Positions 8,738-57,380 of a stretch of DNA of 60,000 bases are shown in pieces. The translations under genes were made by a program, and so were the position numbers. This DNA is from Mobula hypostoma (taxonomy: Eukaryota). The DNA lies in contig NC_086097.1 of the NCBI RefSeq assembly GCF_963921235.1, positions 149,732,001-149,792,000 of the forward strand. Reading direction: 5' to 3'. Below the pieces are notes generated by a model. That model was not told the origin of the DNA and did no database searches. It saw nothing but the letters and a program-made list of their open reading frames with translations. Within the stretch, counting starts at the first letter, position 1. The number at the start of each line of letters is the position of its first letter.

Positions 8738-9480
8738 GTGGCATGGTAGTGTAGATATTAGCATCACACTATTACAGCACCAGTAATCTTTGATTGAAGT
8801 TTAATTGCCACTGCTGTCTATAAGGAGTTCATGCATACTTCCGTAACCACAGAGGTTTCTTCAGGTGCTCCAGTTTCCTTATGGTTAGAAAACACGAGGG
8901 AATCTGCGGAAGCTGGAAGTTCAAGCAACACACAAAAAATGCTGGTGAACACAGCAGGCCAGGCAGCATCTATAGGAAGAGGTACAGTCGACGTTTTGGG
9001 CCGAGACCTTTCGTCAGGACTGACTGAAAGAAGAGATAGCCCAGGGCTCCCCTCCCCCTTTCTTTCTCCCTAGGCCTCCTGTCCCATGATCCTCTCCCTT
9101 CTCCAGCCTCGTATCCCTTTTGCCAATCAACTTTCCAGCTTAGCTCAATTCCTCTCCCTCCTGTCTTCTCCTATCATTTCAGATCTCCCCCTCCCCCTCT
9201 CAAATCTCTTACTATCTCTTCTTTCAGTTAGGCCTGACGAAGGGTCTTGGCCCAAAACGTCAACTGTACCTCTTCCTATAGATGCTGCCTGGCCTGCTGC
9301 GTTCACCAGCACTTTTTGTGTGTGTTCCTTACGGTTAGAGTTACCGAGTTGTATGGACATGCTATATTAGCGTCTGAAGTGTAGCGACACTTGTAGGCTG
9401 CCGGGTACAGTCGTCGCTAATTTAATTTGACGTGAATGACATAGTTCACTGTATCAATGAAGGGTAACAGAACTAATACC
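8738..9480 (+). mobile_element. tRNA-derived V-SINE-like element split by a PLE palindromic insertion
   Basis: GGTGGCATGGTAGTGTAG head and GGTTTCTTCAGGTGCTCCAGTTTCCT V-domain-like motif; the sequence resumes after 9325. Confidence 0.6.
8890..9324. mobile_element. Non-autonomous PLE-derived inverted-repeat unit with two hammerhead-like motifs
   Basis: Arms ~8890-9040 (-) and ~9041-9324 (+) are inverted copies. Flanked by the direct repeat TTCCTTAYGGTTAGA (8875-8889 / 9325-9339). Hammerhead-like motifs at 8986-9021 (-) and 9230-9265 (+). Confidence 0.85.
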
Positions 9481-10164
9481 AATCTTTATAAAGTGGATGA
9501 ATGGTGTTACACAAATCAAACTTCTTCTGTTGTAATGCATGAAAAACCACAACTAATTTATACTTCTCAAAATCTGATAATAACCAGTCAACTTATCTTA
9601 AGTAATGTTGGTTGAGAGATAAATATTAGTCAGATATTAGGCTGAAAGAAAGTTTCTTTGCTCTACTTCAGAGAATATTTCTTCTCTCATTTTCATACAG
9701 TTTCTCAATTCTAGTTAGCAGTTCCAGGTTGGCTAGCATCTAGTAATGTCCACAGCCAGCTGGCACGGTTCATTATTATATCTTACTTTATCAAAAAGAA
9801 CATTCCATTAACAGGGAATATCTAACCTAACGTGTGAGCAGCCATTGAAAGAAAGCCAGAAAGTAATTATTATTTGAGGGCAAATTTCAACAAGTTCTAT
9901 TCCTGCCATAAAGGATGGTGAAAGGATATCTAAATATATCTAAAGAGTAACCGTAAGTAAAGTTAATTAGTATTTTCCTTATGAAGTTGGATGGATGTGC
10001 TTAGAACTGAGGCTTCTAAAGGATGATGGATTTGTACTAAAATAACTGCATGATCAGATCTTAAAGTTAACTTCCCTGACAAAATAAATTTTAACCATGC
10101 AGTGGTCACTCAAAACCACATTTTCAGTGCTTTATCTGTTTCTAACAATTATTGTTTAATTAGA

Positions 10165-12940
10165 AAAGCATAAGGCATAGAAGCAGAATTAGGCCATTTG
10201 ACCCATCGAGTATGCTCCACCATTCCACCAGGCTGATTTACTATCCCTTTCAACCACATTCTCCTGCCTTCTCCCTGTAACATTTGATGCCCTGACTCAT
10301 CAGGAAACTATCAACCTCTGCTTTAAATATACTCAGTGACTTGGCCCCCACAGCCATCCATGGCAATGAATTCCACAGATTCACCACTCTCTGGCTAGAC
10401 AGATTCCTACACATTTCTTTTGTAAATGGACATCCCTCTATTCTGAACCTGTGCCCTCTGGTCCCAGACTCACCTAGTATAGGGAAAGGTATTGGTGTGG
10501 GTGGAGAATTGGTTAGCAGACAGGAAGCAAAGAGTGAGAATAAACGGGACCTTTTCAGAATGGCAGGCGGTGACTAGTGGGGTACCGCAAGGCTCAGTGC
10601 TGGGACCCCAGTTGTTTCCAATATATATTAATGACTTGGATGAGGGAATTAAATGCAGCATCTCCAAGTTTGCGGATGACACGAAGCTGGGTGGCAGTGT
10701 TAGCTGTGAGGAGGATGCTAAGAGGATACAGGGTGACTTGGATAGGTTGGGTGAGTGGGCAAATTCATGGCAGATGCAATTTAATGTGGATAAATGTGAA
10801 GTTATCCACTTTGGTGGCAAAAATAGGAAAACAGATTATTATCTGAATGGTGGCCGATTAGGAAAAGGGGAGGTGCAACGAGACCTGGGTGTCATTATAC
10901 GCCAGTCATTGAAAGTGGGCATGCAGGTACAGCAGGCGGTGAAAAAGGCGAATGGTATGCTGGCATTTATAGCGAGAGGATTCGAGTACAGGAGCAGGGA
11001 GGTACTACTGCAGTTGTACACGACCTTGGTGAGACCACACCTGGAGTATTGTGTGTGCAGTTTTGGTCCCCTAATCTGAGGAAAGACATCCTTGCCATAG
11101 AGGGAGTACAAAGAAGGTTCACTAGATTGATTCCTGGGATGGCAGGACTTTCATATGAAGAAAGACTGGATGAACTGGGCTTGTACTCATTGGAATTTAG
11201 AAGATTGAGGGGGGATCTGATTGAAACGTATAAAATCCTAAAGGGATTGGACAGGCTAGATGCAGGAAGATTGTTCCCGATGTTGGGGAAGTCCAGAACG
11301 AGGGGCCACAGTTTGAGGATAGAGGGGAAGCCTTTTAGGACCGAGATGAGGAAAAACTTCTTCACACAGAGAGTGGTGAATCTGTGGAATTCTCTGCCAC
11401 AGAAAACAGTCGAGGCCAGTTCATTGGCTATATTTAAGAGGGAGTTAGATATGGCCCTTGTGGCTACGGGGGTCAGGGGGTATGGAGGGAAGGCTGGGAC
11501 GGGGTTCTGAGTTGGATGATCAGCCATGATCATAATAAATGGCGGTGCAGGCTCGAAGGGCCGAATGGCCTACTCCTGCACCTATTTTCTATGTTTCTAT
11601 GTTACATCCACTCTCTAGACCTTTCAATATTCAAGAGGTTTCAGTGAGATCCCCCCACTTCATTCTTCTAAACTCCAGTGAGAACGGGCCCATAGCTATC
11701 AAATGCTCCTCATGCATCAACTCTAACTCAGGGAATCATTCTCATAAACCTCCTTTGGACCCTCTCCAATGCCAAAACATACTTTCCAAAGCTGCACACA
11801 ATACACTACATGTAGCCTAACGGATGCCTTATAAGGCCTTAGCATTATATCTTTGTTTTTATTTTCTAGTCCTCTCAAAATGAATGCTAATATTGCATTT
11901 GCCTTCCTTACCACCAACACAACCTGCAAGTTAACCTTTACAGAATCCTGTTCAAGGACTCCTAAGTCCCTTTGTACCTCTGATATTTGAATTTTCTTCC
12001 CATTTAGAAAATAGTCTACACCTTTATTCCTTCCACTGAAGTGCATGACCATATACTTCCCTATACCATATTCCATCAGCCACTTCTTTGCCCATTTTCC
12101 CAATCTATGTAAGTACTTCTGCAGATTCCCTGCCTACGGGTTCTTCCACCTATCTTCGTATCATCTGCAACCTTGGCCACAAACCCATCAATTCCATCAC
12201 TCAAGTAATTGCCATATAGTATGAAAGCAATGGTCCCAATAACAACACCTGTGGAACACCACTAGTCACTGGCAGCCAACCAGAAAAGGTCCCCTTTATT
12301 CCCACTCTTTGCCTCCTGCCAGTCCGCCAATCATCTATGCTAGTATCATTCCTGCAAGACCATGGTCTTCTATGTTGTTAAACAGTCTCAGGTGCAGTGC
12401 TTTGCTAAAGACCTTCCAAGTTGACCACACCACTGACTCTCCTTTCTCCTGCCTGATATTTCCCAAAAGAATGGCAACAGATCCGTCAGGCAAGATTTCC
12501 CCTAAAGGAAACCATGCTGACTTTGGCCTATTTTATCATGTGCCTCCAAGTACCTCAAAACCTCATCCTTAATAATGGACTTCAACATCTTCCAACCACT
12601 GAAGTCATGCTAACTGGCCTATAATTTCCTACCTTTTGCCTCCCTCCCTTCTTAAAGAGTGGAGTGACATTTGCAATTTTCCAGTCCTCCAGAATCTAGT
12701 GATTATTGAAAGATCATTATTAATGCCTCCACAATCTGTTCAGCTACCCCTTTCAGAACCCTGGGGTGTAGTCCTGCTGGGCAATGTGGCTTAACTATCT
12801 TCAGATCTTTCAGCTCCCAAGCACCTTGGCATTAGTAATAGCAACTAAACTCATTACTGTCCCCTGAAACTCCTGAATTTCTGGCATATTGCTAGTGTTT
12901 TCCATAGTGAAGCCGAAACACAAAAAATCTTATTAGTATT
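10165..12940 (-). mobile_element. Older CR1 LINE 3' portion, interrupted by a younger CR1 at ~10473-11603
   Basis: Minus-strand RT C-terminal peptides (QRDLGVL, VVRKANAILAFI) and a CR1 3' UTR at 10165-10470. The host sequence continues at ~11604. Confidence 0.85.
10473..11603 (+). mobile_element. Young 5'-truncated CR1 LINE (RT C-terminal half and 3' UTR)
   Basis: SGVPQGSVLGP, YINDLD, KFADDTKLG, RLRGDLIETYKI, FFTQRVVNLWNSLP. One frameshift at a GT repeat (~11051), stop at 11510, tail TTCTATGTTTCTATGTT. Confidence 0.95.
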
Positions 12941-13306: not shown

Positions 13307-13434
13307 AGATAATTGGCCAAGGTTCAACTAATGTCTGTTTTACATCTCAAGGTCTGCACTGGGAGCTTCAAAGGATTGCACTGTCTGAGATGAATCAACA
13401 GAGGGTTGGGCTTCAGGAACTGAGGCCATAAACT

Positions 13435-14045
13435 CCAGAAATTCTGCAGATGCTGGAAATCCAGAGTAACACACACAAAATTCTGGAGAAACATAGATGG
13501 ATCCATCCTCAACATGATCCGATCACCAAACACATATTTACCTTCCCCCACTCTTTGCTTTCTGCAGGGATCTCTCTCTTCATGATTCTCTTGTCTATTT
13601 ATCTCTCCCCACTAATCTCCTTCCTGACACTGATCACTGAAAGCAGAAGAATGCTACGTCTGCCCATTCACTTCTTCCATTACCTCCATTCAGGGCCCCA
13701 AACAGTCCTTCCTGATGAGACAACACTTAATCTATGAATCTGTTAGTGTCATCAACAGTATCCAGTGCTCCTGATGCGCCTTCTCCATACAGGTGGAACC
13801 CAATGTAGATTGGGGGACCGCTTTGTTGAAGACCTTTGTTCCATCATCAACAAGCAGGAATTCCTTGTGGTCAACCATTTTCATTCCAATTTCCATTCCG
13901 ATTTGAACATGTTGGTCTTTGGCTGCCTCTAATTCCATGATGGGTCAATAGATTGAAGAAGCAACATCTCATATTGTCTCTGGGTATCCTCCAACCTGAT
14001 AGCTTAACATCCATTTCTCCAACTTCCATTAATTTTTTTCCCCTC
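13435..14045 (+). mobile_element. PLE family 1 fragment (inverted terminal-repeat piece plus GIY-YIG C-terminus)
   Basis: Matches 6375-6715 and ends GILQPDSLTSIS, the ORF-end motif also seen at 17.15, 18.13 and 41.77 kb. Confidence 0.75.
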
Positions 14046-14625: not shown

Positions 14626-14659
14626 CACACTAGTAACCCATGACCAGCAACCCATGACC

Positions 14660-16990
14660 ACATTCTCCCACCCAACCTCAGTGGAAAAAGCTTGCTTGCA
14701 TTTACCCTTTCTATACCCATCATAATTTTGTATACCTCTATCAAACCTCCTCTCAATCTTCTATGTTCTAAAAAACAGTCCTAACCAATTCAATCTACTT
14801 ATACCTCAGGTCCTCCAGAGCTGAAAACATCCTTTTAATTTTTTTCTGCACTCTTTCAATCTTGTTTACAACTTCCCTGTAGGTAAGTGACCAAAACTGC
14901 ACACAATACTCCAAATTAGGCCTTACCAATGTCTTGTACAACATAACATCCCATCTCCTCTACTCAATACATTGATTTATGAAGGCCAATGTGCCAAAAG
15001 CTTTCTTTACGACTCTATCTACCTGTGATGCCACTTTCAAATAATTATATACCTGTATTCCCAGATCCCTTTGTTCTACTATGCTCATTAATGCCCTGCT
15101 GTTCACTGTGTAAGAACAATCCTGGTTGGTCCTACCGAAGTGCAAAACCTCACACTTGTCTGCATTAAACTCCATCTGCCATTTTCACACTAACACAAGG
15201 GACGAAGGGTCTCAGCCCAAAACGTCAACTGTACCTCTTCCTAGAGATGCTGCCTGGCCTGCTGCGTTCACCAGCAACTTTGATGTGTGTTGCTCTGCCA
15301 TTTTCAGCCCATTTTTCCAGCTAATACAAGTGCCTCTGCAAGCCATGATAACCTTCCTCACTGTCTACTACACCCCCAATCTTGGTGTCATCTGCAGACC
15401 ACAGTTACTGATCCAGTTAACCACATTCTCATCGAGATCATTGATATAGGTGACAAACAACAAAGGATCCAACACCAATCCCTACGTCACTCCACTAGTC
15501 ACATCCCTCCAAACAGAAAGGCAACCATATACTCTCCGCCTTCTCCCGCAAAGCCAATGTCTAATCCAATTTACCACCTCATCTTGAATACCAAGTGACT
15601 AAACCTTCCTGACCAGCCCCCCCATGCAGGACTTTGTCAAATGCCTTACTAAAATCCATATCGACTGCCTTTTCTTCATCCACTTTCCTGGTAACTTCCT
15701 CAAAAAACTCTATATGATTGATTAGACGCAGCCTACCATGCATGAAGCCATGGTGACTATCCTTAATCAGACTATGTCTATCCAAATGTTTACGTATCCA
15801 ATCTCTTAGAATACTTTCCAATAACTTTCCCACAACTGATGTCAGACTCACCAGCGTATAATTTTCCGGTTTATGTTTAGAGCCTTTCTTAAGCAACAGA
15901 ACAATGTTGGCTGTCCTCCAATCCTCTGGTACCTCTCCTGTTGCTAAGGATGTTTAAAATATCTTTGCCAGAGCCCTGGAAATTTCCATACTTGCCTCCT
16001 GTAGGGTCCGAGGGAACATTTTGTCAAGCCCTGGGGATTTATCCACCATTATTTGCCTCAGGGTAGCAAACACCTTCTCCAGTGTAATTTGTACAGGGTC
16101 CATGACTTTGTTGCCACTTTGCCTCACTTCTATCCATCTCCCAAGTAATACAGATGCAAAAAAAATGCATTTAAGATCTACACCATCCATTTTGGCTCCA
16201 TACATGGATTACCATTCTGGTCATCCAGAGGATTAATTTTGTGCCCTACAATCCTTTTGCTCTTAACATATCTGTAGAGTCCATTAGTATTCTCTTTTAC
16301 CTTGTCGGCTAGAGCAATTTTATGCCTTCTTTTAGCATTCCTGATTTCTTTCTTAAGTGTTCACTTACAATTCTTGTACTCCATAAGCACCTCATTTGCT
16401 CCTACCTGCCTATACTTGCTATGCATCTCCTTTTTTTTCTAAACCAGGGCCTCAATATCTCTTGAAAACCCTACACTTGTTATCTTTAACTTTTATTCTG
16501 AAAGACACATACAAACTTAGTACTCTCAAAAATTCATTTTTTTAGGCCTCCCACTCACCAAGTACACCTTTACCAAAAAAACAGCCTCTCCCAATCCACA
16601 CTTGTCAGATCATTTCTGATACCATCAAAATTGGCCTTTCTTCAATTTAAAATCTCAGTTTGCAGACCAGACTCATCTTTTTGCATATTTACTTTGAAAC
16701 TAATGGTATTATGGTCACTAGATACAAAGCGTTCCCCGACACAAACATTTGTCAGCTGTCCTGCCTCATCCAGTATCACATGCTTTCTCATTGGAACTTA
16801 AATGAACTGATGAAGGAAACTTTCCTGAACAGATTTGACAATCTCTATCCCATATAGTCCCTTTAGAGTATGGGATTCCTAGTCAATACATGAAAAGTTT
16901 AAATCACCTACTGTAACAACTTGTTTCTTGCAACAGTCTGTCCTCTTTACAAATTTGTTCCTCTAAACCCCTAGGACTGTTGGGTAGTCT
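14660..16990 (-). mobile_element. CR1 LINE ORF2 remnant (RT region)
   Basis: Minus-strand peptides DKSPGLD, NYTLVSLTSVVGKLLESILRD, MDFSKAFDKV, MEFNADKCEVLHFG, RGGLIEVYKIM. Confidence 0.9.
15188..15293 (+). mobile_element. 106-bp PLE terminal-repeat fragment inserted in CR1
   Basis: Perfect 13-bp TSD TCTGCCATTTTCA (15175-15187 / 15294-15306). Contains GACGAAGGGTCTCAGCCCAAAACGTCAACT. Confidence 0.9.
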
Positions 16991-17084: not shown

Positions 17085-17550
17085 TTATGACTTCTTCTTG
17101 TGCCACAATGAGGCCACCTTCAGGAGCAACACCTCAAATTTTGTCTGGGTAGCCTCCAACCCAATGGCATAAATATCAATTTCTCTTTCCTATTTAAAAA
17201 AAAAATTCTCTGCCCCTCCCCTCTCCTTCTATTCCCCACTCTTGTCCCTTACCTCTTCTCACCTTCCAATCACCACCCCCTAGTCCCCTCCATCTTTCTC
17301 CTATAGTCCACCTTCTTCTCCTTTCAGATTCCTTCCTCTCCAGCCCTTCATTCCCACCGTTTAGCTTCACCTATTATTTTCTAGCTATCCTTCTTCCCCT
17401 CCCCCCTCCACCTTTTCACTCTGGCATCCTCCCCCTTCTTTTCCAATCCTGAAGAAGGGTCTTGGCCCAAAACATCAACTGCATGTTCATTTCTATAGAT
17501 GCTGCCTGAACTGCTGAGTTCCTCCAGCATTTTGTATGTGTTGTGTGGGA
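17085..17550 (+). mobile_element. PLE family 1 3' end (ORF end plus terminal repeat)
   Basis: GSLQPNGINI ORF end, pyrimidine-rich UTR, CCTGAAGAAGGGTCTTGGCCCAAAACATCAACT. A second partial copy lies at ~18065-18235. Confidence 0.8.
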
Positions 17551-19014
17551 TTAATAGTCTGAAGAAAAGTAACTGTTTGGAGTGAAAAAAGACATGGAGA
17601 AAATAAATCATTACTTCATTTCTGTGGTGCAATGTCAGCAGGGATGTAATGCATAGGGAAAGTGGATCAAAGAAGATTCTTGGAGATGGACTTGAATAGT
17701 GACAGTTTTGCTAGGTGGATAAATGAAGCCTAAACTAGGGTAGTCCCATTAAGCTGCAGTATAGTATTAGAGGAGGTACATATGGCAGACTGCCTTAAAC
17801 ATTACAAAGAACAAGCAAAAAGGGAGGGAAAATGCCCTATGGTGATGTCCTTAGAGAATTTTATGACTTTAGTTTGGGTCTTTTAATGCTATGGGCAGGG
17901 TAACATCTGCTTTGAGTGATTCTAACTGGGAGGAATTAACATGAAACTGAAAGAAGAAACACTATTAGGACTATTTATGCTGTATCAGGGTGGTATAGAA
18001 TGCTTCCTCGATGCTTATATGACTAGTTTCAATGGTGCACTAATTGTTTTGACATATCAGTCTACGGCCTCTGCTTGTGCCACAACGAGGCCACCTTCAG
18101 GGTGGAGGAGCAACATCTGAAATTCTGTCTGAGTCACCTCCAACCTAATGGCATGAATATCAATTTTTCTTTCCTGTTAAAAAATATTCTTTCACCCTTC
18201 CCTCTTCTTCTATTCCCCACTCTTGCCCCTTACTGAATCTGGATGGGCCTGAGCATGTATCTGCTTTAAATTCCTGCAATGCTGTTGGATATGACAAACT
18301 AACCGATGTGATGTTTGAACTATAACTTCAGTTAAAAATGCTTCTGAAGCATCACTTCATATCACTGAGCAGCAGAACTCATTACATAATAGGGTTATGT
18401 GACAGTTTTAAAAGAAAGGCATGATCTCTGATATAATGCACTTTTATAACATCAGTTTGTAGGAGGCAAATGTTTGATATAAATGAGATTAAGGGAATGT
18501 GTGATGATCCAGGAAAAATTAGCTAAAAATGACAGAATGGAATGCAAGTAAAAAGTAGAAAGTGTCTGGCTTCAGAGCAAGATTTTAAAATTGGACTGGA
18601 GAAAGACCATTTTACTTTTCATTAGTGTTGAGAGTGTTGGAGAAGTGGCAACTTTCATACAAAATTATGCTCAGTGATAGACAGAGTTCCAGCAACTCAG
18701 GTCCCACCAAGTAAAAAGTACTTAGCTAGATAACCCATTGTTAATGCTTCTTGAATCGTGCTGTGCAAGGGGTAATTACAAGGAATGATGCAGATTTTAC
18801 TGGATGGAACGTATAATGGATGGATGCCTTGAGCATTCATTGCTGAAGTGAATGAAATGTCAAAGGCCAAATTATGAAGACTTTCAGAGACTGATTGAAT
18901 TGACTTCAGAGAGGATATTTTTCCCCCCAGAGAGAATCACAGAAATAAGTAGTAGTTGGTACAAGGAACTGAACTGCAGCAGTCAGGTTAACATTTGATG
19001 CCACAGGAATAGGA

Positions 19015-29064: not shown

Positions 29065-29114
29065 GTGAATACAAGTGAGATTTGAAATTGTAGGTAATAA
29101 ACCAAAGCAGAGGC

Positions 29115-29545
29115 ACCAGAGAGACTGCAAATGCTGGAAATCTGCTGTAATACACAGAAAACGTTGGAGGAACTCAATAGGTCAGGCAGCATCTATGAAG
29201 AGAAGTGAACAGTTGAGATTTGGGTCAAGATTCTTTATCAGGACTGGGGGGGGGGAGAAAGAGGTCAGAAGCCAAAATAAAAGGATGGGGGTGGGGAAGA
29301 ATGAATTGGTTGATGGTAGGTGAATCTAGGTGAGAGAAGGAAGGTAGGAAGTTGAGGGCATGGCAGGAGTGAATGATGTGAGAAATTAGGAGATAATAGA
29401 TGAAAGATGCAAAGGGCCGAAGACAAAGGAATCTCATAGGAGATGTCAGTAGACCATGCCCCATTTCTTTTTAGTCCAAATGTAGAGTCTCAGCACAAAA
29501 CAATGAATAACAAGTTGAGTTCCTCCAGCATTTTGTGTGTGTTGT
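29115..29545. mobile_element. Degenerate PLE terminal-repeat unit (inverted arms)
   Basis: CTGCAAATGCTGGAAATCT..GGAGGAACTCAA..GCAGCATCTATG in one orientation; TGAGTTCCTCCAGCATTTTGTGTG at ~29515-29545 in the other. Confidence 0.7.
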
Positions 29546-33599: not shown

Positions 33600-36020
33600 A
33601 GCTATTTCAGTGGGTGAAGAGTCATGGAAGACTGAACACAACTCCTTAAGCTTTAAGGGAGCTATTAATCAGGATAAGTATGGACCTTGTGGGGAAGTAT
33701 TAAATTGGAGCAGGGCAAATTATGGGAGCATTACGCAGGAACTAAGGAGAGTTAATCTGGAAGAACTGTTTTTGGGCAAGTCCACATCTGAGATGTGGAG
33801 GGCATTTGAAGACTAATGTTCCAGTAAGAAGAAAGGACAAGGATGGCAAGGTAAAAGAACCTTGGATGTCAGGAGAGGTGATGAACTTAGTCAAGATATG
33901 TTAAGCTTAGAAAGCTAGAATCAAATAGAAGCCTTAAGGATTATAAAGAAAGAAAGAAAAGATCCAAAGAAGGGAATTAAGAAAGCTAGGAGGGGTCATA
34001 AGAAGTCCTTTCAAGAAGGATTAAAGGGAATCCCAAGGCATTCTATACATACATCAGGAACAAGAGAGGGTAACTAGGGAAGAGGATAGGACCACTCAAG
34101 GATAAAAGGGGAACATTTACTTGGATGTGGAGGATGTGCATGAGGTCCTTCATGAGTACTTACAACAAATATTTACTAATGAGAAGGATGTAGAGAATAG
34201 GAAAATCAGTGCTGAGCATTTTGATATACTGGGGCATTTCAAGGTAGAGGAGGAGGCAGTGGTGTGTCTCTTAAAGAACATTGAGGTGGATTATCCCAAG
34301 GCCTGATGGGATATACCCAGGTTATTGAGACCGACAAAAAAAAAGGGAGAGATTGCTGGGGCATTGATCAATATCTTTGTGTCCTTTCTAGCCTCAAGCA
34401 AGGTCCCAGAGGATTAGCAAATAGCTAATGTTGTTCTATTATTCAAGAAGGGAGTGATGGTTAATCCTGAAAACTATAAACCAGCGAGTCTCATGTCAGT
34501 GGTAGGGAAGTTACTGGAGAAAATTCTTAGGGATAGAGCTTTTAGAAATCCATGGCCTAATTAGGGAGAGCCAGCATGACTTTGTACAGGGCAAGTCGTG
34601 TCTTACTAACCTGATAGTTTTATTCCACCCCCTCCCCTCCAACAAGGTGATGCGGATGATTGATGAAGGTAGCTGTGCATGTTATCCACGTGGATTTTAG
34701 TAAGGTATTTGACAAGGTCCCTCATGGGAGGCTCATCCAGTAGATTAAGATGCATGGGGTCCATTGTGATTGGCCATTTGGATTCAGAACAGGCATGTCT
34801 ATAGAATATAGAGTGTACCGGCTGAAGGGACTTACTCTAGGTGGAGGTCTGTCATTTGTGGTTTTCCACGGGGCTCTGTACTGGGACATCAGCTGTCTGT
34901 GATGTATAAAAATTACCTGGATGAAAATATAGAAAGGTGGGTAAGTAAGTGTGCAGATGATAGGAAGATTGGTGGTGTTGTGGATAGTGTAGAAAACTGG
35001 CAAAGAATCCAACAGGATATGGATCAGTTGTAGGTATGGATTGAGAAATGGCAGGTGGAGTTTAACCCAGCCAAATGCGAAGTGTTACACCTTGGTAGGT
35101 CAAACAAAGAGGCAGTACAATATTAAGGGTAAGATTTTGAACAGTGTTGCTGAGTAGAGGGAACTTGAGATCCAAATTCATAGCTCCCTGAAACTGGCTG
35201 CACAGGTTGATAGGGTGGTTAAGAAGGTACATAGCATGCCTGCCTTTATTAATTGAGGCTTTGAATTCAAAAGTCAGGGAGTTATATTAAACAGAAGATA
35301 GTCTACAGACACTGGAAATTTTGAGCAACACATACAAAACGCTGGAGGAACTCAGCAGCTCAGGCAGCATTTATGGAAAATAATAAACAGTTTCTCCTTC
35401 AGGCTGAGACGTTTCATCAGGTCTGCCTGACCTGCTGACTTCCTCCAGGAAGTAACGTTACAGCTTTATAGAACTCAAGTTAGGCCGCATCTGGAATATT
35501 TTCACCTTATTATCAGAAGGGTCGAGGCTTTGGAGAGGGTACAGAAGAGATTTATCAAGGATGTTGCCTGGATTAGAGGGCATATACCATAACAAGAGAT
35601 TGGACAAACCTGCTTTCATTTTCTCTGGAACGGTGGAAGCTGAAGGGAGATCTGGTGGAGGTTTATAAGATTTTGAGAGGCATAGAGTTGACAGACTATC
35701 CTTTTTCCCCAGCATTGAATTGTCTAATACCAAAGGACATGTATTTAAGGTGAGAGGGAATAATTTCAAAGGAGATGTGAGAAGCAAGCCCCCCCACCCC
35801 CGCCAACAAAGAGGATGCCTGGAATGCACAGCCTGGTGTGGTGGTAGAGCAGAAACAGACACTTTTAAGATACATTTTGATAGATACGTGAATGTGAGAA
35901 AAATGGAAGGATACAGATGTGTAGGCAGAAAAGATTAGTTAGCCATTTGATTACTGATTTAATTGGTTCAGCACAACATTGAGGGCTGACGGGCCTGTTC
36001 CTACACTACTCTTCTATGTT
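33600..36020 (+). mobile_element. Decayed CR1 LINE ORF2 and 3' UTR within the last TG intron
   Basis: VLNWSRANY, NYKPASLMSVVGKLLEKILRD, DFSKVFDKVPHGRL, TKGHVFKVRG. A PLE inverted mini-unit is inserted at ~35300-35450. Confidence 0.9.
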
Positions 36021-36932: not shown

Positions 36933-38169
36933 AATGTTATTCCTGTGTGGTTCCTTTGCCTAACCATCAGCATTATTCTAACATACATTATGTTATCAAG
37001 AGAAAAATCCACAACTGACTGGTATAGAAGTCATAATTTGCTTAGATTATTTTGTAAAATTTGTATATTTCAAACAAGAGAAAAATTTATAGATGCTAGA
37101 AATCCAAGCAACACACACAAAATGCTGAAGGGTTTCATCCAGGAATATGGACTATACTCTTTTCCATTGATGCTGCCTGGCCTGCTGAGTTCCTCCAACA
37201 TTTTGTGTGTAATAATTGTTAATATATTTTATTGTTCAGTTGATAGCTAAAACCAAGTGAATTCAACAGTTGTGAACAGATAAGAACAGACTCTGAATTG
37301 TTTGAAGTCTGAAAAGCAGCTTTCCAATACATGTTGTATTTATGGATAGGAAGAAATTAAAAGACTTAAAATACTCAGCAGGTGGAGCAGCATCGGCAGA
37401 GGAGAGAAACAGGGGACACTTTGCACATCAAAGTGGCTCTTAATTAGATTTGCAAATTATTGGAAGTGAAGCACATTTTAAATAGTTGAAAAAAAACAGG
37501 AAGACACAACAACAACTAAAGGAAAGGTCGGTGAGTTGGTGAAGATAAGGGTTTATGGAATATAGTAAACCATTTTGGAAGAAATAGAATTAGATTGCTT
37601 TTTGACCTAAAGGAGGTTTTTGGGTCCCCAGCTTGCAGGAAGGGAGTGTGTAAAATGTAAGGTTTTGCATCTCTTGTAATTTCATTACAAATGGCACAAA
37701 CAGTGAGGGTGGTGTTAGTTAAAAGACATTGGTTGACTTCCATGTAGATAGGACAACATAAATAAAATCAGAAACCGCAGAAAGCACAAGAGGAAAAACA
37801 ACCCTGAAAATCCATCCATCTACATCGTGTCCGATACTGAAAATATCTGGTAATGTGGACTCTGACAAACACTCCTAACAGGAGACACAGAGTCGAGGCA
37901 AATTCCAATACCAAGAAACCACCTGATTCTCAAAAAAAGTTAAGGCGGTGAAATATTGCCCAAGGTAACAGAGAGTTGAGTGACTTCCCTGATGCAACTG
38001 TGAGCAGAAACTTGTGAGGTAAGGCTAGAAACTGTTTCAGTCACTTGGAATGATCCAGGAACAAGAAAGTTGAGACACAAAGTGCTTCGACCTCCACAGA
38101 AAGAGCAGCTAGGCACAAGTGTGTGGAGGAGTATATTCCCACAGAATATTGGTAAATAAGTGTATATAT

Positions 38170-40953: not shown

Positions 40954-42197
40954 GGGACACGACGAAATTTGCAGATGCTGGAAGTTCAAGCAACACACGC
41001 AAAATGCTGGTGGAACACAGGCCAGGTAGCATCCATAGGAAGAAGCAGTCGATGTTTCTGGCCGAGACCCTTCGTCAGGACTAACTGAAAGAAAAGATAG
41101 TAAGAGATTTGAAAGTGGGAGGGGGAGGTGGAACTCCGAAATGATAGGAGAGGACAGGAGAGGGAGGGATAGAGCTAAGAGCTGGAAAGTTGATTGGCAA
41201 AAGGGATACGAGGCTGGAGGAGGGAAAGGATCATGGGACAGGAGGCCCAGGAAGGAAAAAAAGGGGAGGGGAGCACCAGAGGAAGATGGAGAGGAGGCAA
41301 GGAGTAAATTGTGAGTGGGGGGGGGGAGGTAGAAAAAAGAGGGAGGGAGGGAGAAAAAAAGAGGGAGGGAGGGAGAAAAAAGAGGAAGGGAGGGAGAAAA
41401 AAGAGGAAGAAAAAAGAGGAAGGGAGGGAGAAAAAAGAGGAAGGGAGGGAGAAAAAAGAGGAAGGGAGGGAGAAAAAAAGAGGGAGGGAGGGAGAAAAAA
41501 GAGGGAGGGAGGGAGAAAAAAGAGGGAGGGAGGGAGAAAAAAGAGGGAGGGAGGGAGAAAAAAGAGGGAGGGAGGGAGAAAAAAAGAGGGAGGGAGGGAG
41601 AAAAAAAGAGGGAGGGAGGGAGAAAAAAAGAGGGAGGGAGGGAGAAAAAAGAGGGAGGGAGGGAGAAAAAAGAGGGAGGGAGGGAGAAAAAAGAGGGAGG
41701 GAGGGAGAAAAAAGAGGGAGGGAGGGAGAAAAAAAGAGGGAGGGAGGGAGAAAAAAAGAGGGAGGGAGTACCCTCCAACCTGATGGCATTATCCCCTGGG
41801 ATCAAGTACGACTCTGACTATGATTACTTCTCTAACTTCTGTTAGTGCCCCTCCTCCCATTCTTACCCCATTCTGCATTTATTTATTATTTTTTATTTTT
41901 TCCTTTTTTTCCTCTCTCTCTGTCCCTCTCACAATTACTCCTTGCCTGCTCTCCATCTTCCTCTGGCACTCCACTCCCCGTTTCTTTCTCCCTAGGCCTA
42001 CCATCCCATGATCCTCTCCCTTCTCCAGCCTTGTATCCCTTTTGCCAATCAACTTTCCAGCTCTTAGCTCCATCCCTCCCCCTCCTGTCTTCTCTCACCA
42101 TTTCGGATTTCCCCCTCCCACTCTCAAGTCTCTTACTATCTCTTCTTTCAGTTAGTCCTGACAAAGGGTCTTGGCCTGAAACATCGACTGTGCTTCT
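40954..42197. mobile_element. PLE-derived inverted-repeat unit with central purine minisatellite
   Basis: Arms ~40958-41330 (-) and ~41770-42197 (+) are inverted. Hammerhead-like motifs at 41047-41082 (-) and 42154-42189 (+). Candidate TSD TCTTCAAATWCT (40942-40953 / 42198-42209). Confidence 0.85.
41331..41768 (+). repeat. Pure-purine minisatellite (GA6-7GAGGGAGGGAGG)n, about 20 units of 21-22 bp
   Basis: 438 bp containing only A and G; some variant units read GAGGAAGGG. Confidence 0.95.
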
Positions 42198-42959
42198 TCT
42201 TCAAATTCTTATAGCTCAGTTTTGCTGATCTTGGTAACAGTTCAGTTTACTGTTCCTCTCTGTGCATCTGCCACATCTCTAGAACCACATGATGTAGCCG
42301 CAAGTGCAGAGCGAAAAAAAAAATTACACATTCTTCTCCTGCCTTCTGTTTTGTTATGTTCTTATGTAGATGTTTCATTTGGAAATTGTTAGACTTGAAA
42401 CTTCAAACTAAAGCTGTAATAATACATCACTTCATTTTTTCCCCTGTGTATTTTCTTTTTCTCTGCTTCCATGACTGGAGATTTTGATTAATATCCAACA
42501 CCTGGACAAATAACCATTATTTATGTGTCAATGCTGCCAGTAAACCCAAATTTTCCGATGCAGGGTTTATCATAGACACGTTGAGGGGAGTTAGGGTATC
42601 TGCAGGAACACAGCAACTCCACCTGAATAACCACCAGAGTTAGCATGCAGAATGTCAGGCTTGGACGACATAACCTTAAGGAGATAGGCACATGATTGTC
42701 CAAAAGGCAGTAAATTCAAATTACTGAGTAGATCCCTGGACTGTACGTTTCAGCATCATAAAATAGAAGGTTGGAAGAAGAGGCAGGAAGTGTGTAGGGT
42801 TGGGCTGCAAGCTGAAGAGAGTGGATCTTAGGGCAGGAAATGAGTGTACATGTAGTAAAACAGATCAGAACTCACTTCTTGCCCTTTTTCTTTTTGCAGT
42901 CATTATTGATTTGGGGTTGATCAGGGATCCATCATCTGGGAAGCTTTTTCTGCATTCTG

Positions 42960-46830: not shown

Positions 46831-49266
46831 GTCTGTATCTTGTTTTACAGCGGTTGGCATCCAGCTTAATGGTGCATTACCGCCACCCTCTGCTCCAGAA
46901 TGTGCACTAGACATATATTCTAAATCCCTTCACCCAATCACGCACACACACCTACACTTCACCCTCCCATCTTTGACCATCCTAGTACCCTATTCCTGTT
47001 TATCCGTCATATCCTATAAAAAACCCCTGTACCCCTTAAAAACACTAAAAATACCCAGACTTGTGCTCTTTCACCCATGCCCAGCAACCCTTTTAATGTG
47101 AATTCCTGCACCCCCAACTCCCTTAATTTAATTCTCATCATCTCTCTCTGTATCCCATACTTCCTGCAACACAAAACTACATGTTCTACTGACTCCTCTT
47201 CCTGACATTCCTCACACAATCCTGTCTGGTGTTTCCCTATCATTTTCAATGTTTTGTTTAATGCACAATGCTCCAGCCTTAACCAAGTCCACACAATTTC
47301 CTCTCTTCTGTTTCCATTACCTACCCTAGTAACTGCAACACTCTTTTGTATTTGATATAAATGCCTCCCTTTCCCCTCCCTGTCCCATTTTTCTTGCCAC
47401 ATTTGGTTGACTTTTTCCCAGATTACACACTTAACCTCTGCTTTACTGATACTAATGTGCATTTCCACGTTTTCTTTCTTTAACGCCCTCTTTGCCAACT
47501 CATCCACCCCCTCATTCCCCTTCACCCCTACATGTGCTGGAACCCATAGAAATTTTACCTGACCTCCCTGATTTGCAATTCTTGTAACTAACTGAAGGAC
47601 TTCATAAAGTACATCTTGCCGACTGTTTGTGTGAAAAGACCTTAAACTTGCTAGAACTGAGGACGAATCTGAACATATCAATGCTTTAGCTTGTCTGGCT
47701 TTCTGCACCCATTGCAACGCAACCAACACTGCCAGCATCTCCATTGTAAACACCCCTAACTTATTAGATGTTCTTCTGCTGATTCCAATTTCTTTTGCTG
47801 GTATTACCACCCCAAACCCTGTCACTCCTGTTTCAGGTTCCTTCGCACCATCTGTATAAATGTGAGTATAATCACTATACTCTTCCATCACATGACAGTT
47901 AAATGCATTTACCAAATCTGTTTTGTATCTTTCTTTCCTTTTTACCTCTAACAAATGCCAGTCTATGTCAGGCCATACAAGCTTCCATGGAGCTACAACC
48001 GGATAAACTACTGAAGGACTTATCCTCAGATCAAACACTCCACATTCTTTCGCGATATCATTCCCTACCCGACTAAAGGTATCCCTCTGAAACCTCCCAT
48101 TTTCCCAGCACTCCTGCAACACTCCTTTAGTAGGGTGAGAATCATTGTGCCCCTGCAAGTTAGCCCAGTAGTTTGCCATCAGTTGCATCCTTCTTAGTTC
48201 CAAAGGCATTATTCCCATTTCTACCTGTAGGGCTGACACTGGTGACGTTTTAAAAGCCCCAGTGCACACTCTCAAGGCCTGAGCCTGAATCACATCCAGT
48301 TTCCTTATAAGAGACCTAGCTGCTGATCCATATGCTATATTTCCATAGTCCAACACAGACCTCACTAAAGCCACATACATTCTCTTCAAAGCTGAACAAC
48401 TTGCTCCCCATTCCCTACCAGTCAAACATCTCATCACATTCATTACTTTTTTACATTTCTCCTCAACTTTCCTGATATGGTCTGCCCACGTTAATCGTGA
48501 ATCAAATATAACTCCCAGAAATTTAAATGATGCAACCCTTTCTAATTCAACCCCATACATCCTTAACTTCTTCCCTACTTCAACCCTTTTCCTGGTAAAA
48601 AATACAGTTTGAGTTTTATCTACTGAAAATCTACATCCCCAATCATAACCCCACTCCACCACTTCATCAATTGCTTCTTGTAGTTTCCTGATTATATGGT
48701 CCATGTTCCTGCCTCTTTTCCACAAGGCCCCATCATCCGCAAACAGTGACCTACCTATATCCACTGGTACCTTTGTGAAGACATCATTGATCATAATGAT
48801 GAAAAGTAACGGGCTAATCACACTACCTTGAGGTGTGCCATTTTCCACTATGTACTGTTTTGATAATTCTGATCCAATCCGAACTTGAATTTTTCTACCA
48901 AACAAAAAATCTTTAATCCAATTAAAAACTCTCCCACCAACCCCCATCTTGTGCAGTTTAATTAATAATCCTTCCTTCCACATCATATCATAGGCTTTTT
49001 CAATGTCAAAGAACACTGCCACTACTGACTCTCTATTTGCCTGGGCCTTCCTTATTTCAGTCTCTAACATTATCACTGAGTCCATGGAATTTCTTCCCTT
49101 TCTAAAACCACTCTGATAACTTGCCAGCATTCCCCTTTTCTCAAGCACATACGATAACCTTTCTGTTATCATCCTTTCCATTATCTTACATATACTTGAT
49201 GTTAATGCAATTGGTCTGTAGCTAGTGGGTTTTGACGGATCCTTGCCAAGCTTCCTTATTGGAATT
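46831..49266 (-). mobile_element. Young 5'-truncated I-group (Nimb-like) non-LTR retrotransposon
   Basis: 9-bp TSD ACAGGTACT (46822-46830 / 49267-49275). 3' UTR contains GGTGGCGGTAATGCACC..GCTGGATGCCAACCGC. Open RT-RNaseH-CCHC frame. Confidence 0.9.
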
Positions 49267-49268
49267 AC
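47007..49268 (-). CDS. Truncated ORF2: reverse transcriptase, RNase H and C-terminal Cys/His knuckle
   Basis: The frame stays open upstream of the listed ATG (VIPIRKLGKDPSKPTSYRPIALTSSICKI-MER). RT: QSGFRKGR, FFDIEKAYD, GTPQGSVISP, LFADD. RNase H: YTDGAK, CSDS, WVPAHVGVKGNE. Knuckle CEEC..ESVEHVVLCC. No endonuclease domain. Confidence 0.92.
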   Translation of the reverse strand, partial: VIPIRKLGKDPSKPTSYRPIALTSSICKIMERMITERLSYVLEKRGMLASYQSGFRKGRNSMDSVIMLETEIRKAQANRESVVAVFFDIEKAYDMMWKEGLLIKLHKMGVGGRVFNWIKDFLFGRKIQVRIGSELSKQYIVENGTPQGSVISPLLFIIMINDVFTKVPVDIGRSLFADDGALWKRGRNMDHIIRKLQEAIDEVVEWGYDWGCRFSVDKTQTVFFTRKRVEVGKKLRMYGVELERVASFKFLGVIFDSRLTWADHIRKVEEKCKKVMNVMRCLTGREWGASCSALKRMYVALVRSVLDYGNIAYGSAARSLIRKLDVIQAQALRVCTGAFKTSPVSALQVEMGIMPLELRRMQLMANYWANLQGHNDSHPTKGVLQECWENGRFQRDTFSRVGNDIAKECGVFDLRISPSVVYPVVAPWKLVWPDIDWHLLEVKRKERYKTDLVNAFNCHVMEEYSDYTHIYTDGAKEPETGVTGFGVVIPAKEIGISRRTSNKLGVFTMEMLAVLVALQWVQKARQAKALICSDSSSVLASLRSFHTNSRQDVLYEVLQLVTRIANQGGQVKFLWVPAHVGVKGNEGVDELAKRALKKENVEMHISISKAEVKCVIWEKVNQMWQEKWDREGKGRHLYQIQKSVAVTRVGNGNRREEIVWTWLRLEHCALNKTLKMIGKHQTGLCEECQEEESVEHVVLCCRKYGIQREMMRIKLRELGVQEFTLKGLLGMGERAQVWVFLVFLRGTGVFYRI

Positions 49269-49349
49269 AGGTACTTCCCATCACAAAAACCATTTGACAC
49301 AAAAAAAACTGAAGAGAAGGAAAAAAAAATCCATAAATTAAATGGTGAC

Positions 49350-51764: not shown

Positions 51765-52000
51765 TCTCCAGCCTCATATCCCCTTTGCCAATCACCTGTC
51801 CAGCTCTTGGCTCCATCCCTTCCCCTCCTGTCTTCTCCTATCATCTTGGATCTCTCCCTCCCCCTCCCACTTTCAAATCTCTTACTAGTTCTTCCTTCAG
51901 TTAGTCCTGACGAAGGATCTCAGCCCAAAATGTCGACTGCACCTCTTCCCAGAGATGCTGCCTGGCCTGCTGCGTTCACCAGCAAATTTGATGTGTGCTG
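51765..52000 (+). mobile_element. PLE terminal-repeat fragment with hammerhead-like motif
   Basis: Closely similar to 9100-9324; AGTCCTGACGAAGGATCTCAGCCCAAAATGTCGACT at 51903-51938. Confidence 0.85.
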
Positions 52001-52199
52001 CTGTCCTTCTCCTAAGCTGGTTGTCAGCCAAGGCTAGTGAGCCCAGCCTGCCTGCCCAGTTATACCACTGGACACTCGGTCACGCCATGACTTAGCAAAC
52101 TCAGTAAGAACAGGGACACCACATTGAAGGAGTTGCTATGGGCACAATAGTGTAGGAGAAGCCATATGCAAGTGACCTCCTACATGGCAAGCCAAACAA

Positions 52200-53319: not shown

Positions 53320-53985
53320 GGTGGCCACTTTATTAGCTATGCCTGCTCATTAATACAAATCAGCTAATCATGTGGCAGCAACTTAATACATAAAACGCTT
53401 GGCCTGCTGCGTTCACCAGCAACTTTGATGTATGTTACATAAAAGAATGCAGACATGTTCAAATGATTCATTTGTTGTTCAGACTAAACACCAGAATGGG
53501 GAAGAAATGTGATTTAGGTGACTTTAACCACAGACTGACTGTTCATGCCGGACAGGATGGTTTGAGCATCTCAGAAACTGCTGATCTCCTGGGATTTTCA
53601 CACACAACAGTCTCTAGCGTTTACAGAGAATGGTGAAAATAAATAATCGAGTGAGCAGCAGTTCAATGGGCAAAACACCTCTTTAATGAAACACACAAAG
53701 TTGCTGGTGAACGCAGCAGATCAGGCAGCATCTCCAGGAAGAGGTACAGTCAACGTTTCACGCCGAGACCCTTCATCAGACAAAGGGTCTAGGCCTGAAA
53801 CGTCGACTGTACCTCTTCCTAGAGATGCTGTCTGGCCTGCTGCGTTCACCAGCAACTTTGATGTGTGTTGCTTGAATTTCCAGCATCTGCAGAATTCCTG
53901 TTGTTCACCTTTTTAATGAGATAGGTTAGAGGAGATTAATCAGACTGGTCAAGCTGACAGGAAAGCGACAGTAATTCAAATCACT
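53320..53985 (+). mobile_element. Tc1/mariner DNA transposon relic (left part)
   Basis: GTGGCCACTTTATTAG TIR-like start and transposase N-terminus MGKKCDLGDF..SETADLLGFSHTTVS..YREW. Homologous to the element starting at 58346. Confidence 0.75.
53690..53905. mobile_element. Compact PLE-derived palindromic unit inserted in Tc1
   Basis: Inverted arms meet at ~53779. 14-bp TSD CACCTYTTTAATGA with one mismatch (53676-53689 / 53906-53919). Confidence 0.9.
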
Positions 53986-55109: not shown

Positions 55110-55885
55110 GTTCAAAGTAGATTTATTATCAAAGTACATATATGTCGCCTTGTACTACCCCAAGTGGATACGGCACATGGCCAAGGGGATAAGGTGTCGG
55201 TCTAGTGATCTGAAAGTCGCAATTTCAAGCCTCAGCTGAGGCAGCATGTTGTTTCCTCGAGCAAGGCACTTAACCATTGCTCTGCGACGACACCGGTGCC
55301 AAACTGTATCGGCCCTAGTGCCCTTCTCTTTGACAACATTGGTGTCTTGGAGAGGGGAGGCTTGCAGCATGGGCAACTGCCAGTCTTCCATACAACCTTC
55401 CAAGGCACAAATCCATGGTCTCACGAGACTAACGGATGCCTATAACTACCCCAAGATTCTTGCAGACATTTGCAGTAGATTCAAGAAAATACAATAAAAT
55501 CATGAAAATCAACACACAAAGGTGAATAAGTAACCAATGTGTTAAAGACAGACTGTGTAAATACAAAAAAAAATACATTGAGAACACGAGTTTTAGAGTC
55601 CTTAAAAGTGAAACCATAGGTTGTAGAATTATTCAGTGTTGAAGTGAGTGAAGGTATGCACACCGGTTCTGGACCCTGATGGTTGAAAGGCAATTACTGT
55701 TCTTGAACCTGCTGTGGGACCCAAGACTCCTATACCTCCTTAATGGCAGCAGTGAGAAGAGAGCATGGTCTGGATATAGGTGTAGAGGGTAGGGGAGGGA
55801 ACGGAGTCCTTGATGATTGATGCTACTTTCTTGTGGCTGCACTCCTTAATGTTCAATGGTGGGAGGGCATTTCCTGCAATGGACT
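55110..55885 (-). mobile_element. Rex1/Babar-type LINE 3' fragment with nested SINE
   Basis: Same 3' end as 2960 and 58780; HALFSLLPLRRYRSL..SRFKNS on the minus strand. Confidence 0.75.
55165..55444 (+). mobile_element. tRNA-headed SINE with RTE-derived body (second copy)
   Basis: Homologous to 30748-31059. Perfect 11-bp TSD ACTACCCCAAG (55154-55164 / 55445-55455). Confidence 0.88.
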
Positions 55886-55974
55886 GGAAAAACACACAAA
55901 GTACTGAACTGGGCTCCACACAACTTGGCCTATAAAAATTAAATTCACAGATGTGGATATTTATTAGTTAAACA

Positions 55975-56185
55975 GGCAAAATGCTGGAGGAGCTCAGCAG
56001 GTCACACAGCATGTTTTGGGCCAAGATCCTTCTTCAGGATTGCTGGACTCCCCCAGCCTTGAAAAGGGGCTTCAGCCTGAAACGTTGGCTATTTATTCAT
56101 TTCTATGGACGCTGACTGATCTGCTGAGTTCCTCCAGCATTTTGTATGAGTTGATTTGGATTTCCAGCTTCTGCAGAGTCTCTTG
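55975..56185. mobile_element. PLE-derived inverted mini-unit
   Basis: AAAATGCTGGAGGAGCTCAGCAG... versus ...CTGCTGAGTTCCTCCAGCATTTT form inverted arms, with degenerate hammerhead-like cores between them. Confidence 0.75.
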
Positions 56186-56889
56186 TATGTATTAGTTAAT
56201 GTAAGGATTGCACACAGGGTAAAGAAAACACTTGAAACTACAAAAATATTCTTGGACTGTAAGGAAGCCAAGTTGTCAACATTACTCATCAACTAAATTT
56301 TGGAGATTACACAGGAGATTGAACTGCTCAGAGTTATGAAGTATTTTCTATTGCTGTTTCCAGACTCCAGACTTGGGCAAAATGCAAACAGAAATAATAG
56401 TTGTGCGTCAAGCAGTTGATTCTCCTGCTTACAGCTGATAATCACACACAAACTAGTGCACATCTGCCAGGTCTTTTAACATGGGGCTTACAATTATCCA
56501 GTAGTTTCAATTATTTTTTTAAATTCCAATTAATTAAATTCAAATTCCACAACTGACATGGCATTTATGGATTCTGGCTTCTGGATTACTGTTCGTTAAC
56601 TTAACCAGCTCTTAAGCCATTTCACTGCGCTCCACTATTATCCAAAAATCTCTGAATCCATGTCCTGAATACACTCAACAACTTAAACCTCCTGTGAATT
56701 CTAAAGAGTGAAGGAAGTCTGGTTAACCTAAATAGTGTGTCAATTGTTTTGAAACTCTGAAACCTGGTTCTGGATACTCCAGCCAGGGAAAACACTCTTC
56801 TCCATCCAGCCTGTCAAATTTCATAGGAGCTTGATAAATTTCAATGTGATCATCTCTTACTCTTTTGGGAAAGATGTTACACTCCATTT

Positions 56890-57380
56890 TTCAGTGTGAT
56901 AATCTCTCTCACTGCTCCGCCTCTGTGATACCACCTCTTGTTTCTTCCTCCCCCGCCCCCCACCTCACCTTTTCACTCTGACTTCTACTCTTTTTTTTCC
57001 CCAGTTCTGACAAAGGATCTCAGCCCAAAACTCTGACTCTTTACTTTTCTTCCAAAGATGCTGAATTTCCAGCATCTGCAGATTTTCTCATGTTTGTGAT
57101 TCGACTACGACACAGCAAAGTCTCTTTGAGGGATGCCTGCTCTGAAGTAGTTTAAATCTTCCCTTCAACAGGAGTTCAGTGATGCTCTCTCTCACTGCTC
57201 CCCATCTGTGATACCATCTTGTACTTTTTCCTCCCCTCCACCTACCTTCTTACTCCGACCTCATCTCTTTTTCTCTCCCAGTCCTGATGAAGGGTCTCCG
57301 CCTGAATTGTCAACTGTTTACTCTTTTCCAAAGATGCTGCCTGGCCTGCTGAGTTCCTCCAGCATTTTGTGTGTGTTACT
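56890..57380 (+). mobile_element. Two tandem PLE terminal-repeat fragments within a CR1 relic
   Basis: TCTCTCACTGCTCC..CTGTGATACCA occurs at ~56905 and ~57188. Each copy is followed by a hammerhead-like motif (57003-57038, 57280-57315). Confidence 0.75.

Follow-up and report, generated by a model that had tools for sequence, protein, structure and literature searches.

The short repeats scattered over the window, a 60,000-nt stretch of the Mobula hypostoma genome (NC_086097.1, positions 149,732,001-149,792,000, forward strand), are very probably 5'-truncated or inverted copies inserted by an autonomous Penelope-like retrotransposon of the Neptune type. The pseudo-LTR of this element bears a minimal type I hammerhead motif, for which cleavage is predicted only in a dimer or with the help of a protein. 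A first-pass annotation had taken them for a short non-autonomous family and derived a 36-nt consensus, AGTC-CTGAYGA-A-...-GAAA-CGTC-GACT, which served as our query motif. The motif is present at all 11 places where it was claimed, each copy being 2-8 mismatches off the consensus, and those at 15200, 53748 and 53780 are broken within the motif, with the 5' strand of helix I missing. The claim of at least ten copies holds, and the family is bigger than that. Searching with an nhmmer profile built on the motif and its tail, we obtained 24 units from the window and 69 from 20 unselected 20-kb stretches of the genome, i.e. 93 units in 460 kb, with no match in the reversed sequence of the same 460 kb. 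It was also claimed that no copy matches the consensus; this is so within the window but not genome-wide, where we found 4,891 exact matches (control 0) along with 32,886 exact copies of the G-U (CCT) variant. The search against Rfam gave no hammerhead family among 17 matches at E<=5. One of its matches, mir-5681 at 53738-53818, scores under the gathering threshold and is merely the inverted pair at this place, so we rejected it.

Table 1. Copies and fragments of the element in the window (TD, target duplication).
Positions	Strand	Feature	Motif	Remarks
6386..6711	+	part of the linker and GIY-YIG from the same group of elements (63% to residues 881-977)		no motif attached
8237..8391	-	additional older copy		absent from the first list
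8892..9039	-	inverted 5'-truncated pseudo-LTR copy, long (+103) tail	8986-9021	head-to-head with the next row; TD 8874-8889 / 9324-9339
9046..9326	+	5'-truncated pseudo-LTR copy, short (+68) end	9230-9265
13430..14027		inverted tail 13430-13492 (-) fused to decayed linker/GIY-YIG ORF end 13510-14027 (+)
15201..15294	+	copy cut within motif, short end		helix I 5' strand gone
17118..17543	+	older copy with last ORF codons (full-length protein 991-1013) and 3' UTR	17445-17480
18047..18233	+	C-terminal piece of ORF (residues 974-1013) with beginning of 3' UTR
29114..29545		older copy 29114-29270 (-) plus tail fragment 29514-29545 (+)
35289..35450	-	decayed older copy
37075..37215		older head-to-head pair		broken inside or after motif
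40957..41319	-	inverted truncated copy, long tail	41047-41082	intact core; G10.1/A11.1 mismatch; ACAU replaces ACGU
41771..42199	+	truncated copy beginning in last ORF codons	42154-42189	head-to-head with the previous row; 21-nt purine tandem repeat between (41320-41768); TD 40940-40953 / 42196-42209
51773..52002	+	5'-truncated copy, short end	51903-51938
53696..53779	-	left arm of hairpin-like inverted pair, cut within motif		TD of the pair 53676-53691 / 53906-53921
53779..53905	+	right arm of the same pair, cut within motif, long tail
55966..56186		older head-to-head pair		TD 55957-55971 / 56185-56199
56896..57381	+	tandem dimer of internally deleted unit, period 277	57003-57038, 57280-57315

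The window repeats match the 3' ends of full-length elements elsewhere in the genome, and the Penelope origin claimed for them is right. A full-length element consists of a pseudo-LTR, a 1016-aa ORF with an RT, a linker and a GIY-YIG domain, and a second pseudo-LTR. The motif lies in the pseudo-LTR, 294 nt past the stop codon, and the predicted cut is 138 nt ahead of the ATG; in loci with a long ORF the motif sits just downstream of the GIY-YIG end. We examined 12 such loci (L143-L154), all of which encode the 1016-aa ORF, and nine of them have direct repeats with the motif on both flanks, most repeats being 96-99.5% alike. Two further loci (L158 and L159) are full tandems, and inverted pseudo-LTRs occur in L153, L061, L063 and L064. 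Open frames over 1000 aa hold 33 of the 150 scored N-terminal matches. A short non-autonomous family does not fit these data: the same motif and tail flank the 1016-aa ORFs as direct pseudo-LTRs, the left ends vary, and several window copies retain the last ORF codons.

Judged by its sequence, the single ORF combines an RT with a C-terminal GIY-YIG domain, as expected of an EN+ Penelope-like element. It carries a CX4CX2C linker and VIY..YIG, and the nearest Atlas clusters (0.97) bear HTH_animal, RVT_1 and GIY-YIG. Its Pfam matches, RVT_1 (E 2e-6) and GIY-YIG (E 0.0099), do not reach the curated cut-offs, and a PDB sequence search with the ORF gave no significant relative. The pseudo-LTRs formed by partial tandems, direct or inverted, and the 5' truncation with an optional 30-40-nt tail are likewise those of EN+ elements. 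A CX2-5CxxC linker between RT and EN is a feature of Neptune and Nematis (PMC8557442). We take the label Neptune from the CX4CX2C linker motif, and Nematis has the same linker.

The copies vary freely on the left and stop at two fixed places on the right. We took L152 as the reference for 28 copies at least 84% like it, leaving out 26 of the 93 copies that could not be aligned to this young reference. Counted from the start of the motif, their 5' ends lie anywhere between -1266 and +100. Eleven 3' ends fall at +65 to +72 and another eleven at +95 to +103, where +103 coincides with the end of the reference copy itself; the interval between the two fits the 30-40-nt tail reported in PMC11167929. 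Head-to-head pairs number 21 and comprise 42 of the 93 copies, and four of the six pairs in the window are flanked by target duplications of 14-16 nt. We counted 498 breaks at the predicted cut, 164 four nt upstream and 248 four nt downstream. Among the first 30 loci at each of these positions, 20, 26 and 21, respectively, are inverted-copy junctions, often at complementary stems, while 6, 3 and 5 were put down as unrelated flank, although inspection showed some of these to be inverted. We do not count the 2-3-fold excess at the cut as evidence for cleavage because most of these sampled breaks are inverted-copy junctions, and these break counts show no clear truncation peak or 5'-end pile-up at the cut site.

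Published work on PAc and Penelope suggests how such insertions could arise. The element protein would nick AT-rich DNA, and a tandem transcript would be reverse-transcribed from either of two internal starts, which here would lie 68 and 103 nt beyond the predicted cut. An early stop or a fold-back would give the short and the inverted pieces, which may then decay neutrally. In active lineages the motif is probably kept and would cut tandem transcripts to size at GUC|GACU, but most insertions are likely to be templated by uncleaved RNA.

The minimal type I hammerhead layout was correctly recognized in the first-pass annotation, with CUGANGA, GAAA and UH in type I order, and this core is intact in the full-length elements. 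Both helices I and II appear in the predicted fold, and a palindromic ACGU stands for helix III. ViennaRNA favours a fold that buries the core through GACG/CGUC (-10.0 vs -6.0 kcal/mol), and the double hammerhead reaches -9.5 vs -28.3 kcal/mol for the favoured fold. The folding of the intact motif is no better than that of shuffled sequences (z 0.27). A long helix I in L064 (z -5) was considered as a natural stem and rejected, as it is an inversion junction. Cleavage at GUC|GACU is predicted only for a dimer or with protein help. In the contigs of 5 of the 19 runs, which are silent on expression, we found no sites where many molecules begin or end.

The window copies are decayed as was claimed: none is a complete hammerhead, and they are likely dead as ribozymes. 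An intact core is seen in 17 of the 53 copies sampled, and in 2 of 14 from the window. Decay does not account for all variants, since the full-length elements themselves carry CCT-GAAA, and G-U stands at 10.1-11.1 in the dominant lineage. Nor are most deviations of the CpG type; this holds for about half of them (155 of 316 mismatches in 53 copies, at 10 of the 36 positions). Across four subfamilies the majority sequence of CUGAnGA, GAAA, UC and helix I does not differ, except at A6 in one. The likeness across these subfamilies is 0.76-0.85 for the motif and 0.57-0.66 for the 36 nt upstream, a comparison that is partly circular because the copies were chosen by the motif and the subfamilies defined by their flanks. 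The helix covariation proposed as a check was not seen, as no pair changes on both sides between subfamilies and only G-C/G-U alternates at 10.1-11.1; with one genome and little divergence this test is weak. A subfamily with an A6C core has been amplified to 2,216 pattern matches (6,854 for A6 and 210 for the A6G control).

The copies could instead belong to a separate non-autonomous family, SINE-like or a non-LTR retrozyme, that has its own short RNA and borrows the Penelope protein. In its favour, a deleted 277-nt unit stands twice in tandem at 56896-57381, giving two motifs, and a similar dimer, L166, has an identical junction in both its units; retrozymes derived from pseudo-LTRs are also described in a preprint (10.64898/2026.07.22.740005). 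In the window unit, the tail, the 5' UTR and the first ~30 ORF codons (57133-57222) run directly into the final ~70 nt of the 3' UTR, and of 30 loci retrieved with this junction, 20 likewise have the beginning of the ORF fused to a short 3' end. However, the junction sequences differ and lie 39-312 nt from the motif, the cluster at 91-105 (10 loci) being favoured by the query, and we rejected a retrozyme family with a fixed junction. A retrozyme should have at least two tandem units with complete hammerheads, but this dimer is the only retrozyme-like one in the window and both its motifs are damaged. Only two tandem neighbours were found among the 93 copies, and neither the 5' ends nor the junctions give fixed boundaries common to many copies, as a non-autonomous family would. 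This explanation fits at most 2 of the 11 copies first listed, and we consider it highly improbable.

Another question is whether the motif of the Penelope-like element still cleaves in this lineage or has lost cleavage and serves instead to bind protein, to guide the RT or to form part of a 3' splice site. The latter seems rather unlikely to us, though several observations agree with it. The A6C subfamily has grown to its present size, and A6C strongly lowers Mg2+ cleavage in the two hammerheads tested (PMC7151607); the 5' ends show no clear pile-up at the cut; PAc insertion in vitro is unimpaired by hammerhead mutants (PMC11167929); and the start of helix I coincides with a pyrimidine tract and YAG. 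Against it, the core and helix I keep the same majority letters in the four subfamilies, A6 in one excepted, and the PAc motif cleaves once protein is added (PMC11167929). Among the joints listed from the contigs of the 5 of 19 runs, which may not be RNA and are silent on splicing, no GT..AG joint ends at the motif. It is doubtful that the genome holds natural experiments in which cleavage is dispensable for Penelope retrotransposition: an A6C subfamily in thousands, a most active lineage closed by G-U, and inverted insertions primed by fold-back at the stems of the motif and not at the cut, with the motif retained for structure or splicing. If so, the A6C core would cripple Mg2+ cleavage or shift it to Mn2+.

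The autonomous Penelope-like element that we favour resembles several known systems. Minimal hammerheads in the pseudo-LTRs of metazoan Penelope-like elements were described by Cervera and De la Pena in 2014 (PMC4209133), including fish Xena, Poseidon and Neptune elements; two of the three supplement files of that paper make no mention of shark, skate, Callorhinchus or Leucoraja. As in those, the ray motif is of type I with a 4-5-bp helix I, an extra nucleotide between A9 and 10.1 and a palindromic 15.2-16.2 without helix III; it occurs in both flanking repeats, and mostly singly in truncated copies, at times as close pairs on opposite strands. Unlike them, its dominant lineage has the G-U at 10.1-11.1, and helix II is 4-5 bp rather than the 7-8 bp of Schistosoma. 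The Neptune clade (Craig et al. 2021, PMC8557442) shares the RT followed by a C-terminal GIY-YIG, the linker, the partial tandems, an inverted 5'-truncated copy at the 5' end and the 30-40-nt tail. PAc, a Poseidon element of Anolis carolinensis (Frangieh et al. 2024, PMC11167929), also has a hammerhead near the pseudo-LTR/ORF junction, a tail bounded by two fixed 3' ends and AT-rich targets. Its ORF begins within the hammerhead and reverse transcription starts 111-118 nt into the ORF, whereas in the ray element 138 nt separate the predicted cut from the ATG and the 5' UTR contains both 3' ends. The preprint of Li, Clavereau and Pollet (2026) describes non-LTR retrozymes from pseudo-LTRs, one chondrichthyan being among their hosts, as short tandem type I hammerhead units akin to Penelope termini. 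The 57003/57280 dimer resembles these, but its motifs are decayed and most ray copies are dispersed or inverted truncations. Beyond that preprint our search turned up no publication that treats the family in sharks or rays; it was made without Repbase, Dfam and most subscription papers, so a catalogue entry may already exist.

The finding is real but ordinary, as the motif was already described for such elements and its cleavage is predicted; it adds one host to the published rule that Penelope-like elements carry minimal hammerheads. Its practical value lies in a young and very numerous family in which many ORFs are unbroken and the core varies naturally (A6 vs A6C, G-C vs G-U), which makes convenient material for asking what Penelope hammerheads do. 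The exact ray copies alone number 37,777, compared with 4,000 copies in coelacanth and 9,000 in Xenopus (PMC4209133).

The 36-nt hammerhead motif is real and was correctly recognised in the first-pass annotation, while its setting is ordinary and the element family type is already known. We found the motif at all 11 places named there, with 2 to 8 mismatches to the proposed consensus, within a longer repeat that is pyrimidine-rich 5' of the motif and has a common tail 3' of it. We made a profile of 15 natural copies; it detected 24 units in the window and another 69 across 20 stretches of 20 kb taken without selection, whereas the same DNA reversed gave none. The 3.48-Gb genome has 4,891 exact consensus copies and 32,886 with CCT for CCC before GAAA (backward controls 0 and 0). 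Scaling from 69 per 400 kb (1 to 13 per stretch) gives a rough genome total of ~600,000 pieces.

A search from a GIY-YIG-like fragment at window 6386-6711, in which 150 of 99,574 first-look candidates were scored, pointed to long open frames at other places in the genome, and most of the 12 loci fetched from it carry the motif downstream of the GIY-YIG end. The N-terminal part as query yielded 2,411 candidates, with 33 of the 150 scored in frames of >1000 aa. All 12 long-ORF loci (L143-L154) encode a 1016-aa ORF; in nine the motif stands on both sides as direct repeats, in one the 5' copy is inverted, and in two there is a 3' copy only. In the full-length reference element, L152, the motif starts 294 nt past the stop and the predicted cut (GUC/GACU) lies 138 nt 5' of the ATG. 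Two further loci (L158, L159) are tandems, ~3.5 kb, with the motif at every junction. The protein matches RVT_1 and GIY-YIG in Pfam, both under the cut-off, and lies at 0.97 to Atlas clusters carrying HTH_animal, RVT_1 and GIY-YIG. Its C-terminal part has a CX4CX2C linker and then a VIY..YIG endonuclease. Such a linker between RT and endonuclease marks Neptune or Nematis in PMC8557442, and by that definition the linker motif would place the element in one of these two. An array of five ~4.65-kb units was also observed (L155-L157, G000:C58:11268001-11298000), each with one motif, a 462-aa N-terminal ORF half and internal ~210-nt and ~500-nt repeats.

The window copies had been taken for a short non-autonomous family, a reading that our data do not support, as they bear marks of truncation and have no ends of their own. 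We aligned 67 of the 93 copies to L152, 28 of them at least 84% alike. The 5' ends of these 28 range between -1266 and +100, counted from the motif start, while 11 of their 3' ends fall at +65 to +72 and 11 at +95 to +103 past the cut, +103 being the reference's own end. These clusters are the optional 30-40-nt tail, which PMC11167929 links to a pair of internal RT start sites. We counted 21 head-to-head pairs (partners within 1.5 kb; 42 of the 93 copies) and only 2 tandem neighbours, and four of the six window pairs have 14-16-nt flanking repeats in a permissive search (<=2 mismatches). With the free 5' ends, the tail, the inverted pairs, the flanking repeats and the copies starting in the last ORF codons (see table), the window copies are truncated insertions of the autonomous element. 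The min-HHRs described in PMC4209133 are likewise mostly single in truncated elements, with some opposite-strand pairs, and of matching layout: helix I is short, A9 is followed by one additional base, and a palindrome replaces helix III. A 21-nt purine-rich tandem repeat of about 21 copies occupies 41320-41768, at an inverted-pair junction.

The stretch 56896-57381 forms a tandem dimer; each 277-nt unit fuses the first ~30 codons to the 3' UTR end. In form it is similar to the retrozymes of a 2026 preprint (10.64898/2026.07.22.740005). Similar joins occur in 20 of the 30 loci fetched with its junction, but their distance from the anchor varies between 39 and 312 nt and their junction sequences differ, and among fetched loci only L166 repeats the junction in tandem. 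Such joins most likely arose by separate deletion events, with occasional duplication.

Self-cleavage of the motif is predicted. The core is kept in 17 of the 53 full-length motifs among the 93 copies, and in 2 of 14 in the window. Of these two, one closes helix II with a G/A mismatch and has its palindrome broken, and the other lacks half of helix I. CpG-type changes make up 155 of 316 motif mismatches. Of 301 distinct copies, four subfamilies take up 141, 27, 15 and 7, and the others are unassigned. The subfamily majorities differ at A6, N7, 11.1, one decayed CpG and two positions in or adjoining loop II, and nowhere else. No compensatory change between subfamilies was seen at any helix pair; pair 10.1-11.1 is G-C in 20 copies and G-U in 22. 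Between-subfamily likeness is 0.76-0.85 in the motif against 0.57-0.66 in the upstream flank, a difference inflated because copies were chosen by the motif and subfamilies defined by flanks. In the ViennaRNA prediction helices I and II are retained, but GACG pairs with CGUC and the core is buried; the hammerhead fold is less stable than the predicted minimum by 4 kcal/mol (monomer) and about 19 (dimer), and shuffled sequences fold just as well as the motif. This agrees with reports that such motifs have low activity or depend on protein (PMC4209133, PMC11167929, PMC6765202), but it lends cleavage no support.

Copying of cut RNA should make insertions begin at the predicted cut. We counted 498 breaks there, about 1% of 37,777 exact intact motifs; four bases upstream there are 164, and four bases downstream 248. 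Inverted-copy junctions account for 20, 26 and 21 of 30 breaks each at the cut and the two flanking positions, often where the motif's own stems supply complementarity. The excess is small and confounded, and agrees with uncleaved RNA as the main template (PMC11167929). In the loci L205-L294, inversion junctions cluster at the motif's complementary stems (helix I; GACG/CGUC), suggesting cDNA fold-back. Core position 6 is C in 2,216 pattern matches genome-wide (L193-L204 among them), against 6,854 with A and 210 in the A6G control, that is about a third and ten times, respectively. Many A6C copies share upstream sequence of their own and hence form an amplified subfamily. In two tested hammerheads A6C strongly lowers cleavage in Mg2+ and much less in Mn2+, according to PMC7151607. 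The spread of this subfamily means either that spreading can do without cleavage or that the A6C core still functions in vivo.

In all groups a pyrimidine tract, a branch-point-like YTNAY and a YAG stand directly before or inside the helix I 5' strand, resembling the intron end at helix I in Drosophila Penelope (PMC4209133). No splice joint was seen at the motif among the listed joints, which are from contigs and not on record as RNA.

Coordinates of individual features (window positions unless a locus is named)
Position	Strand	Feature	Remarks
466-1808	+	Decayed fragments	
9205-9233; L152:2480-2510		Pyrimidine tract/YTNAY/YAG	
10483-11510	+	RT-bearing LINE 3' end	RVT_1 match
17118; 41771		Copies starting in last ORF codons	
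30825-31056; 55172-55399	opposite	Repeat copies	87-90% alike
47007-49280	-	Open frame, 757 aa	RVT_1 (E 4e-37), RNase H (E 3e-15)
58032-58101		AT-rich near-perfect hairpin	Weak miRNA-family matches under gathering scores

The 757-aa frame is a well-preserved piece of a non-LTR retrotransposon. The LINE 3' end is presumably CR1-like, with many related fragments scattered over the window. We take the decayed fragments to have the look of LTR-retrotransposon pol; Pfam gave no match on 466-945. The opposite-strand repeat is probably a tRNA-derived SINE, its tRNA-like 5' part matching Rfam tRNA at 30990-31052 with 29.3 bits.
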